From: a virus
Lineage: Duplodnaviria > Caudoviricetes
Reading direction: 5' to 3' (one strand)
IMG/VR virus record: IMGVR_UViG_3300033073_000736
Span: 1 to 64,000 of that record
Length of the DNA: 64,000 nt
Both the position numbers and the translations under genes were made by a program. Of this stretch, positions 6,232 to 8,278 are shown in pieces. A model generated the notes under the pieces. The model was not told the DNA's origin. It worked only from the letters and a program-made list of their open reading frames with translations, and made no database searches. Each line of letters begins with the position of its first letter. Position 1 is the first letter of the stretch.

Positions 6232-6429
6232 ATGACGCTCACAAAAGTTCAGAAAGTTGTAGTTGACGACAAGATGAAAGACAGGTACACTGTCATTGGT
6301 CTATTCCAGAACCTGAGTGGACTTGCGGGTGCGGATGTCGGTTTGGTTAAAGGGAAGCACCGTATCCATATTAATTGCCTTGGATACGATTCCTATGTTA
6401 GTGGCTTAGTTTATCAGGAGATAAAATGA
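6232..6429 (+). CDS. hypothetical protein
   Basis: ATG at 6232 downstream of the promoter; stop overlaps the MTase start (ATGA). Confidence 0.55.
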   Translation: MTLTKVQKVVVDDKMKDRYTVIGLFQNLSGLAGADVGLVKGKHRIHINCLGYDSYVSGLVYQEIK

Positions 6430-7121
6430 ATGAGTTGGCACTTTTCGCGGGCGCTGGTGGAGGACTACTCGCAAGCAGTATCATCGGAAACACTATTGTA
6501 TGCGCTGTCGAACGAGATGAGTATTGCATCGAGATTTTGTGTCAAAGACAGAACGACAGAATTATTCCACCGTTCCCGATATGGGACGACATCTGTACAT
6601 TTGACGGGAGGGGATGGAAAGGAACTGTGGACTTGGTTTCTGGAGGATTCCCCTGTCAAGCATTCTCTAGTGCAGCAAGAGGTAGAAATATTGCTGAAAA
6701 AGATTTATGGCACGAGATGCGTAGGGTTATTGGAGAGGTTGAGCCTAGAGCAGTCTATGCTGAAAATGTATCCGAAAAAGCCATACTATATGCAAGAGAC
6801 GACTTGTTTCACATGGGGTATAACTGCGAATATATCAAACTTTCAGCGAAAGACGTTGGTGCAGACCATGAACGGGACAGATTTTGGTTACTTGCATACA
6901 CCGACGACTATGGCCAACTTTGCCGCGCCAAGTATGCAAAAGCACAAGGGGTGCCGGAACTTCGTAACAGCGTTTGGGAAACCTTCCCCGACGAACTTCG
7001 AGTATCTGATGGGGTGGCCTTCAGGATGGACAGACTTAAAGCCCTTGGCAACGGACAAGTTCCTCTTGTGGCGGCAAGCGCATGGATTATGTTGCACAAA
7101 AGATGTTTCGGAAACGGCTAA
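6426..7121 (+). CDS. C5 cytosine DNA methyltransferase, catalytic (alpha-type) polypeptide
   Basis: Motif I FAGAGG, IV GGFPCQ, VI ENV, VIII HERDRFW and X RLKALGNGQVP; motif IX and a TRD are absent from this frame. Confidence 0.92.
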   Translation: MNELALFAGAGGGLLASSIIGNTIVCAVERDEYCIEILCQRQNDRIIPPFPIWDDICTFDGRGWKGTVDLVSGGFPCQAFSSAARGRNIAEKDLWHEMRRVIGEVEPRAVYAENVSEKAILYARDDLFHMGYNCEYIKLSAKDVGADHERDRFWLLAYTDDYGQLCRAKYAKAQGVPELRNSVWETFPDELRVSDGVAFRMDRLKALGNGQVPLVAASAWIMLHKRCFGNG

Positions 7122-7134
7122 CCTTACTAAGTGA
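6430..7134 (+). CDS. putative beta polypeptide of the methyltransferase, overprinted in the +1 frame
   Basis: 234 codons open across the whole MTase gene; HTPTT (TRD-like) and PTNFEYLMGWPSGWT (motif IX-like); shares the AGGAG SD at 6416-6420. Confidence 0.72.
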   Translation: MSWHFSRALVEDYSQAVSSETLLYALSNEMSIASRFCVKDRTTELFHRSRYGTTSVHLTGGDGKELWTWFLEDSPVKHSLVQQEVEILLKKIYGTRCVGLLERLSLEQSMLKMYPKKPYYMQETTCFTWGITANISNFQRKTLVQTMNGTDFGYLHTPTTMANFAAPSMQKHKGCRNFVTAFGKPSPTNFEYLMGWPSGWTDLKPLATDKFLLWRQAHGLCCTKDVSETANLTK

Positions 7135-7325
7135 TAGAGAGATTGCAAATGAAAGTGCTGATCACCCTGCCTGCACCAGTTGCAGACATTGTACAACAAA
7201 CTCGCGGCGAGATGAGTATTCAACGATTCATTGTTGAGGCTATCAAGTCCTATCATCAACGTAACGTCTCCAATGGGGGAAACAAACATGACCGTAGTAG
7301 TACGAACACAGTTCCAATTAACTAA
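7131..7325 (+). CDS. putative ribbon-helix-helix (CopG/Arc-like) regulator
   Basis: KVLITLP alternating strand, then helix, then MSIQRFIVEAI helix. Confidence 0.55.
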   Translation: MIERLQMKVLITLPAPVADIVQQTRGEMSIQRFIVEAIKSYHQRNVSNGGNKHDRSSTNTVPIN

Positions 7326-7755
7326 TCTTCTGATTGATTGCTTGGGTAAGACGCAGACAACCACATCTGAGCGAATGCTTCTTATCTGTCTATCAAAATA
7401 CACCAACCCAAAGAACAATTGGCAATGCTGGCCTTCTACAGAGGTGCTGATGCAAGATAGCGCACTGAGCAGGTCAGCAACTTTTGCTAACTTAAAATCC
7501 CTCAAAGACAAAGGGATTCTGTCCACTCTCCCCGGCTACACAGGAAGATGCTCTCACTACATCATCCGTATCGAAAAGATTGCTGACGCTAGGTATGCCA
7601 CACAAGCTGAACTGGACAAGCCTAAAGAGAAAAGCAGCAATAAAGGCAGCAAACATGTTGACAAGTCCCCTCCTGTTGTGCAACAATCTTCACATCAACA
7701 AGGCTTCAGTCATCCAGACTACGACGATGATGAAGAACTTGATACGCCATTTTAG
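7288..7755 (+). CDS. winged-helix protein resembling the N-terminus of phage/plasmid replication initiators (HTH_36-like)
   Basis: ERMLLICLSKY...CWPSTEVL...LSRSATF..LKSLKDKGIL pattern; acidic tail ending in PF. Confidence 0.7.
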   Translation: MTVVVRTQFQLTNLLIDCLGKTQTTTSERMLLICLSKYTNPKNNWQCWPSTEVLMQDSALSRSATFANLKSLKDKGILSTLPGYTGRCSHYIIRIEKIADARYATQAELDKPKEKSSNKGSKHVDKSPPVVQQSSHQQGFSHPDYDDDEELDTPF

Positions 7756-7771
7756 AGAGAGAGGAACCAAA

Positions 7772-8278
7772 ATGAAACCAACCATCCCTGTACAGCAAGT
7801 GAAGAAAGCCCCTACTCCTGTTGTTGTGGCACAGAATACTGCTATTCCACCCTCCCGACCAAAACCTGCGTTGGCTGATACTGAATGGGAGTTTTATGAA
7901 GACATGGAACCACATGAAATGGACATCAATATTGCCAAGTTCATCCTATTCAAGGTGAAGAGTTGCAGTGAACGCGGTGTTGAGTGGAAGCTAACATTCC
8001 AAGCCGTCAAGAATTTGATGAAATCCAAGAAGTGCTATTACACTGGTCAGAAGCTGACACAGCCGGTGAAAGGGGTGGCTGGGTTTATCAAGCGTGAAAC
8101 GGATATTACACTGGATCGTATTGATTGCAAGAAAGGATATGTGAAGGGGAATGTTGTTGCTTGTTCCAGTTGGGCTAATCAGCTAAAATCTGAAGCTGAA
8201 AACAAGACAGTATTTGGGGTCGAAGATGCTGCCAAGGTTTTTGTCAAGGCATCTAAACGTTTGAAGAATGGAGAATAG
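7772..8278 (+). CDS. His-Me finger (HNH-like) endonuclease-family protein
   Basis: KCYYTG...TLDRID..KGYVKGNVVACSSWANQLK; GAGG SD before ATG 7772. Confidence 0.7.
   Translation: MKPTIPVQQVKKAPTPVVVAQNTAIPPSRPKPALADTEWEFYEDMEPHEMDINIAKFILFKVKSCSERGVEWKLTFQAVKNLMKSKKCYYTGQKLTQPVKGVAGFIKRETDITLDRIDCKKGYVKGNVVACSSWANQLKSEAENKTVFGVEDAAKVFVKASKRLKNGE

Follow-up and report, generated by a model that had tools for sequence, protein, structure and literature searches.

Organization of the Locus

The window, which is the whole stretch of 64,000 nucleotides that was analysed, carries a tailed-phage genome with genes for a primase/helicase, DNA polymerase, tape measure, baseplate, portal, and large terminase. 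The locus described here contains two long reading frames, A and B, that are read from the same strand over nearly the same nucleotides. The features of the locus are collected in Table 1. A preliminary description of this DNA had proposed two full-length open reading frames behind one Shine-Dalgarno sequence. The coordinates and the spacings of 5 and 9 nt were re-derived, and both frames are open.

Table 1. Features of the two-frame methyltransferase locus, in window coordinates
Feature	Coordinates	Strand	Remarks
Small upstream ORF, 65 aa from ATG 6232	6232-6429	+	same frame as B; stop TGA within ATGAATG
AGGAG Shine-Dalgarno, common to frames A and B	6416-6420	+	5 nt before ATG 6426, 9 nt before ATG 6430
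Frame A, predicted C5-cytosine DNA methyltransferase catalytic core, 231 aa	6426-7121	+	stop 7119-7121
Frame B, second ORF, 234 aa	6430-7134	+	+1 frame; start 4 nt after that of A; stop 7132-7134
B residues 1-135, putative leader	6430-6834	+	open, weakly constrained as protein (stops, periodicity, SNPs)
Motif I, FAGAGGG	6444-6464	+	A residues 7-13; within PF00145 and M.HhaI alignments
Motif IV, GGFPCQ	6642-6668	+	A residues 73-78; catalytic Cys
Motif VI, ENV	6759-6770	+	AENV at A residues 112-115
B residues 136-219, conserved module LHTPTT ... EYLMGWPSGWT ... DKF..W	6835-7086	+	putative recognition/motif IX-like
Motif VIII, HERDRFW	6861-6896	+	A residues 148-154
LHTPTT in B	6892-6909	+	
Hand-over segment, A residues 158-192, putative linker	6897-7001	+	selection follows B (periodicity, SNPs)
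PTNFEYLMGWPSGWT in B	6988-7032	+	
Motif X-like LGNGQVPLVAA of A	7044-7076	+	by pattern; shared with the end of B, constraint on both frames

Both start codons are contained in the sequence ATGAATG. The ATG of B is kept, as xAT-G, at 30 of 31 loci; it is retained when residue 2 of A is N, Y, or H and also when A starts at TTG, at GTG, or farther upstream. Comparison of the loci supports the conservation of paired starts behind a single ribosome-binding site.

The TGA of the small upstream ORF overlaps the ATG of A (ATGA) and abuts the ATG of B, and translation of this ORF may be coupled to both starts. It was matched by no Pfam or PHROG family. Related ORFs of 52-65 aa (FISKEQ..VV ... KG.H..IINGLGYDTY) are found ahead of the methylase at loci L001, L002, L006, and L008, and the small ORF therefore travels with the cassette. 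The flanks of the homologous loci are unrelated to each other, which indicates that the gene is a mobile cassette and makes the neighboring genes unusable for the calibration of dS. A megablast search of the region against phage records returned no match.

Two further reading frames lie close by. An HNH-endonuclease-like ORF (7580-8278, + strand; phrog_3118, E = 1e-26) is located shortly 3' of the methylase. An antisense ORF of 212 codons (6888-7526, - strand), which overlaps the 3' end of the methylase, appears in the mechanical ORF list only and is probably a by-product of doubly constrained sequence.

Frame A Corresponds to a Catalytic Core without a Recognition Domain

Residues 4-165 of A are matched to profile positions 4-168 of 324 in Pfam family PF00145 (E = 5e-24). 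The profile of A homologues aligns to residues 15-174 of M.HhaI, which comprise motifs I-VIII, and stops at residue 174; a Foldseek search with the AF2 model of a related core (locus L117) also matched M.HhaI. The preliminary description had assigned motifs I, IV, VI, VIII, and X to frame A and had reported the absence of motif IX and the near absence of a target-recognition domain (TRD). Motifs I, IV, VI, and VIII were located, together with a motif X-like segment. Motifs IV, VI, and VIII are invariant or near-invariant in alignment A1. In the same alignment G208, N209, Q211, V212, and P213 are invariant, as is the C-terminus of A with LGNGQVP. LGNGQVP is called motif X by its pattern, this segment being outside the Pfam and PDB-profile alignments. 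Neither a TRD nor motif IX was found between motifs VIII and X of A, where the partial PF00145 match has already ended (168 of 324), and only ~45 poorly conserved residues separate motif VIII from the motif X-like segment.

The search for A homologues returned 7961 sequences. The best 120 of these 7961 are 225-241 aa in length and are 71-92% identical to A over 90-100% of the length. By comparison with these proteins, frame A is an intact, colinear, and full-length member of a compact ~230-aa family of C5-methyltransferases.

A sequencing error or a frameshifted pseudogene, in which one protein would be read from A, then B, then A again, was considered and rejected because thousands of homologues have a colinear A that is conserved from end to end. 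The gene is truncated in several GenBank records of cultured phages; the annotated methylase coding sequences of phiRSP (MH252365, locus L072; 390 nt) and BUCT711 (OM816836, locus L074; 516 nt) are 5'-truncated. Neither the A frame, which starts at TTG or GTG, nor the B frame was recognized in these two annotations.

Frame B Is Kept Free of Stop Codons at Most Homologous Loci

At 48 of the 56 complete homologous loci (40-82% aa identity) the +1 frame has no stop, where 4-9 would be expected, and B is at least 0.9 times as long as A; both frames extend to at least 200 codons at 50 of the 56. Stop avoidance was quantified with a set of 31 homologous genes from IMG/VR (A identity 40-82%), nearly all of which are stop-free in the +1 frame from the TGA at codon 0 to the 3' end. 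Synonymous-codon shuffles of these genes give an expectation of 2.5-9 stops in the +1 frame; none is present in the gene body of 25 of the 31, and for most of the genes 0 of 1000 shuffles were as open in this frame as the observed sequence. The +2 frame of the homologues contains 7-25 stops, which matches the shuffle expectation. For the gene in the window, with the A protein held fixed and the phage's own codon usage, the probability of no +1 stop is 0.0016. The 17 other window genes that were compared have 4.3 stops per 100 codons in the +1 frame, and their longest open run in that frame is 91 codons.

Codons 2-135 by themselves are open in 12 of 14 divergent lineages, with a probability of zero stops between 0.0007 and 0.12 per lineage. 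A single stop is found in the B leader at five loci, namely at codon 101 in L013 and L014, at codon 26 in L040 and L045, and at codon 60 in L047. The C-terminal module is still open and conserved at all five, and these stops are consistent with some lineages either dispensing with the leader or restarting translation internally. The comparison of homologues for +1 stop avoidance had been put forward in the preliminary description as a check on B, and it came out in favor of B at the 48 open loci, with the leader stops at five loci as noted.

Matches to B were obtained in 23 cultured-phage records, the hosts of which are Pseudomonas, Ralstonia, Klebsiella, Acinetobacter, Salmonella, Vibrio, Stenotrophomonas, and Microcystis. 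One unbroken match covers at least 80% of B in 21 of the 23. Both frames are open in the cases that were inspected (phiRSP, PS-1, BUCT711, and ABMM1). A word search with B returned 497 matches. A profile search returned 28,689 cluster representatives (50% clustering, E <= 1e-3), and most of the best 150 begin at residue 1. Among the B-type proteins for which precomputed Pfam results were listed, none carries a domain except for one frame-switched chimera. These comparisons identify A and B as two conserved coding frames.

Selection Passes between the Two Frames

Pairwise differences were tabulated by codon position for successive segments of the alignment. In A codons 2-135 the most variable position is position 3 of A (0.47-0.53), with identities of 0.72-0.73 for A and 0.46-0.51 for B. 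All three positions are fairly conserved in codons 136-157 (A identity 0.76, B identity 0.58). In codons 158-192 the differences at A positions 1, 2, and 3 are 0.53, 0.26, and 0.32, respectively; the most variable position is now position 1 of A, which is position 3 of B, and the identities are 0.40 for A and 0.65 for B. In codons 193-217 all three positions are conserved (A identity 0.73, B identity 0.67). The hand-over of periodicity is repeated in a second, deeper clade. Differences that are synonymous in A occur less often in codons 136-217 than in codons 2-135, mostly by a factor of 2-3.

Polymorphism was examined with 25 listed SNPs from contigs of two metagenomes that are ~96% identical to the window. 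The SNPs in codons 1-135 comprise nine that are synonymous in A and non-synonymous in B, three of the reverse kind, and four that change both proteins, so that 13 of the 16 are non-synonymous in B. Five SNPs fall within 6898-7001. Three of these are synonymous in B with radical changes in A, and the other two cause K>R and M>I in B. None of the 25 listed SNPs lies within 6955-7088. The stop codon of B is changed from TGA to TAA in the ~96% relatives and is thus retained.

Residues 1-135 of B combine weak amino-acid constraint with strong stop avoidance, and this segment therefore reads as a translated leader. The AF2 model has a pLDDT below 50 over the same residues. The last ~85 residues of B, in contrast, are under strong selection as a protein module. 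Residues 158-192 of A are, by the periodicity and the SNPs, a linker with its sequence dictated by B. The dual coding had been described at the outset as running end to end. That description stands in so far as both frames are conserved and coding by comparison; it has to be amended to an asymmetric arrangement, with B residues 1-135 hardly constrained and A residues 158-192 reduced to a linker.

The C-Terminal Module of B and Its Association with the Methyltransferase

Two relatives in which the +1 frame is closed provide information about the module at B residues 136-219. Locus L117 is a single ORF of 337 aa. In this protein residues 1-226 are 45% identical to A (E = 2e-61), and residues 253-335 are 48% identical to B residues 136-217 (E = 7e-24). 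Locus L075, from a gut phage scaffold, has the same build, with the module in frame after motif X. Both fusions are without B residues 1-135. In cultured phages, the B module was matched nowhere but at loci with a match to the A methyltransferase. Comparison of these loci supports a functional association of the module with the A enzyme. Since some relatives carry the tail of B joined directly to the enzyme, this tail is very probably the part that A is missing.

Two families of ~70 aa, phrog_35493 and phrog_26627, match B residues 184-220 with E values of 1e-9 to 1e-10, and phrog_1008, annotated as "DNA methyltransferase," matches residues 184-204 with an E value of 4e-4. The segment EYLMGWPSGW resembles motif IX in its pattern. 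The preliminary description had likened the B tail to a TRD and motif IX. The likeness is one of pattern only: Pfam, a PDB profile search, and an hhalign comparison with the canonical methyltransferase of phage 5093 gave no match for a motif IX or TRD identity. With the colinear fusions L055 and L059 the PF00145 match does not reach into the B tail. The ESM Atlas search with B returned unnamed viral clusters only, with a recognition value below threshold.

The AF2 model of B has a mean pLDDT of 49, with values of 64-77 for residues 160-223, and because of this low mean the model is unusable for a fold search. In the AF2 model of the L117 fusion the core is good and the pLDDT of the module is ~36-65, and the docking of the module is unreadable because of this low confidence.

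Long forms of the gene were found at loci L046, L050, L054, and L057-L064 and in Acinetobacter phage ABMM1, and in these each frame runs for more than 300 codons without a stop. The insert consists of (W/F/L)PTP-type repeats in B and a low-complexity linker in A, after which A resumes with motif X. A two-frame layout is also present at loci L077 and L092, which are high-GC, prophage-type IMG/VR sequences from a distant C5-methyltransferase clade. B starts ~45 codons inside A at these two loci, and the +1 protein carries several xTP..A.D repeats and a WMMGFPPGW tail.

Comparison with Known Systems

In split C5-methyltransferases of the M.AquI type, the motifs are divided between two chains that are encoded by adjacent genes, and the split falls in the variable region with motifs IX and X kept together. 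The arrangement proposed here would resemble this type in the division of motifs between two chains and differs from it in that the two frames are overprinted, whereas the M.AquI-type genes are adjacent. Phase-variable methyltransferases are comparable with respect to the homopolymer found in a related clade with C10-C12 tracts; the gene in the window is without such a tract.

M.EcoHK31I (Escherichia coli HK31, recognition sequence YGGCCR) had been named in the preliminary description as the precedent for an alpha/beta enzyme with its beta chain in an alternative frame. This agrees with the account of the enzyme in PMC2836561, where the alpha gene encloses, in a different frame, the coding sequence of a 61-aa beta chain with motif IX and the enzyme requires both chains. 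The two systems are alike in having a second polypeptide in another frame of a methyltransferase gene. They differ in extent, since the two frames overlap completely here (234 of 231 codons), with one Shine-Dalgarno sequence and start codons separated by 4 nt, whereas the beta gene of M.EcoHK31I is a nested gene for 61 aa. They differ also in content, since A lacks the recognition domain that the M.EcoHK31I alpha chain has, and the variable region here is in B, with PTPT/WPTP repeats in relatives. The likeness is one of gene layout.

Total overlap of C5-methyltransferase ORFs has been remarked upon in PMC5601072 for the Streptococcus thermophilus 5093-group phages, the pneumococcal phage MM1, and Tn5252; the remark is made there without a function and with citations of Obregon 2003 and Sampath & Vijayakumar 1998 for the overlapping ORFs. 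These streptococcal elements resemble the present locus in that two same-strand frames cover a C5-methyltransferase gene. In phage 5093, in contrast, the methyltransferase frame is complete and includes motifs IX and X of its own, and the +1 ORF has only 143 codons. This +1 ORF gave a weak hhalign alignment with B residues 61-160 (probability 83%, E = 9e-6), a similarity that may be partly forced by the homologous A frames.

Proposed Two-Chain Methyltransferase and Alternative Explanations

The gene probably encodes a methyltransferase of two polypeptides, an A+B heterodimer of the M.EcoHK31I kind with total overlap of the two frames. The polypeptides would be made from starts 4 nt apart behind a single ribosome-binding site. 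Frame A would supply the AdoMet-binding catalytic core (motifs I-VIII and X), with a sequence-indifferent linker in place of a recognition domain. We infer that B is translated end to end from ATG 6430, that it forms a heterodimer with A and contributes a recognition/motif IX role, and that the enzyme would act against restriction. The first ~135 residues of B would form a loose leader of which the chief demand is openness, and the last ~85 residues would bind the core and supply the missing variable-region/motif IX-like part. The active A+B heterodimer would probably methylate phage DNA, with anti-restriction as its putative biological role. The two-chain enzyme is preferred because it explains all of the observations, among them the second ATG behind the common Shine-Dalgarno sequence, the open leader, the A linker that stays open through inserts, and the fusions. 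Counting against it are the near absence of amino-acid constraint in B residues 1-135, for which the modeled confidence is also low (pLDDT < 50), the leader stops at five loci, the negative profile searches for motif IX, and the low confidence of the module in the fusion model. On the DNA, motifs I-VIII lie in A, the IX-like motif in B, and motif X in A, an order that one recoded chain would fit equally well.

Such recoding, by ribosomal or transcriptional slippage from A to B after motif VIII and possibly back before motif X, would produce a single chain, and full-length B would not be a product. The canonical order of motifs I-VIII, variable region, IX, and X would be restored as the motifs lie on the DNA, the periodicity hands over exactly at codons 158-192, and amino-acid constraint is missing in the B leader. 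A related clade carries a poly-C tract (10, 11, or 12 nt) directly after motif VIII, at the first hand-over, ~470-490 nt into the gene (loci L026, L055, L056, L059, L065, and L070). With C11 these contigs join A motifs I-VIII to the B tail, with C10 the B leader is joined to A motif X, and with C12 both frames are continuous. The tract could be a phase or slippage switch, or a homopolymer assembly error, and the differences in its length would be weakened as evidence for recoding by the latter. In the gene of the window, however, no homopolymer exceeds 5 nt, and neither hand-over point has a slippery heptamer; the longest homopolymers within 6426-7134 are a pair of A5 runs that lie at neither of the frame junctions. 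A return to A could be read in one metagenome contig (run X3, depth 32 of 279), in which an extra G after 7019 would join the IX-like motif of B (...EYLMGWP) in frame to FRMDRLKALGNGQVP of A and hence, in the canonical order, to its motif X; this contig may represent a divergent relative or an error. Recoding leaves unexplained the stop avoidance in B codons 2-135, the openness of the A linker across inserts of more than 100 codons, and the conserved ATG of B, and it is judged unlikely.

A similarly low probability, if anything slightly lower, is given to the production of a short beta chain only, in which the C-terminal ~85 residues of B would be made from an internal start, by analogy with the 61-aa beta chain of M.EcoHK31I, and the openness of the first 135 codons would be a side effect. 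The concentration of constraint in B residues 136-219, the restriction of the L117 and L075 fusions to this part, the open module at loci with a leader stop, and the B start ~45 codons within A in the high-GC prophage clade would all fit a short chain. The alignment, however, contains no conserved internal Met ahead of the module, the 5' ATG is conserved, and 12 of 14 divergent lineages have no stop in the leader, at the per-lineage probabilities given above (0.0007-0.12).

It is more doubtful still that B is a real protein outside the enzyme, such as a regulator or an anti-defence factor, which happens to share the DNA. In favor of this reading, B has no detectable profile similarity to solved or curated methyltransferase domains; against it, L117 and L075 carry the module as an in-frame extension of A cores, the module is seen only at methyltransferase loci, and A is without any recognition domain. 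Least probable, and strongly disfavored by the sequence comparisons, is an unexpressed B with an openness that is a by-product of composition or of the A sequence: at phage codon usage, half of the gene taken from a single sequence is free of stops with a probability of ~0.05, but stop avoidance is joint over many lineages saturated at synonymous sites, codons 158-192 have the periodicity of B, in-frame fusions exist, and the +2 frame matches expectation.

Implications

The two-chain enzyme may belong, as a tentative proposal with a little less than an even claim on belief, to a very large and essentially unannotated class of phage and prophage C5-methyltransferases with an obligate two-frame organization, a specificity module in the +1 frame, a translated leader of more than 130 codons for which only openness matters, and re-wiring by homopolymer slippage at the hand-over points in some clades. 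If this is true, the overlap would rank with the longest that are known to be conserved between same-strand genes of prokaryotic viruses, and annotation would systematically overlook the specificity of phage methylases. For thousands of "orphan" phage cytosine methylases, annotation and REBASE-style prediction of specificity would cover only half of the enzyme if B is the recognition subunit. The locus would also be a natural system for two proteins that share ~700 nt, in which constraint visibly passes between the frames, and a long leader that is held open without sequence constraint is a point of interest for overlapping genes in general. Cultured relatives are available in phages of Pseudomonas, Ralstonia, Klebsiella, and Acinetobacter, in which single synonymous changes can silence one frame.
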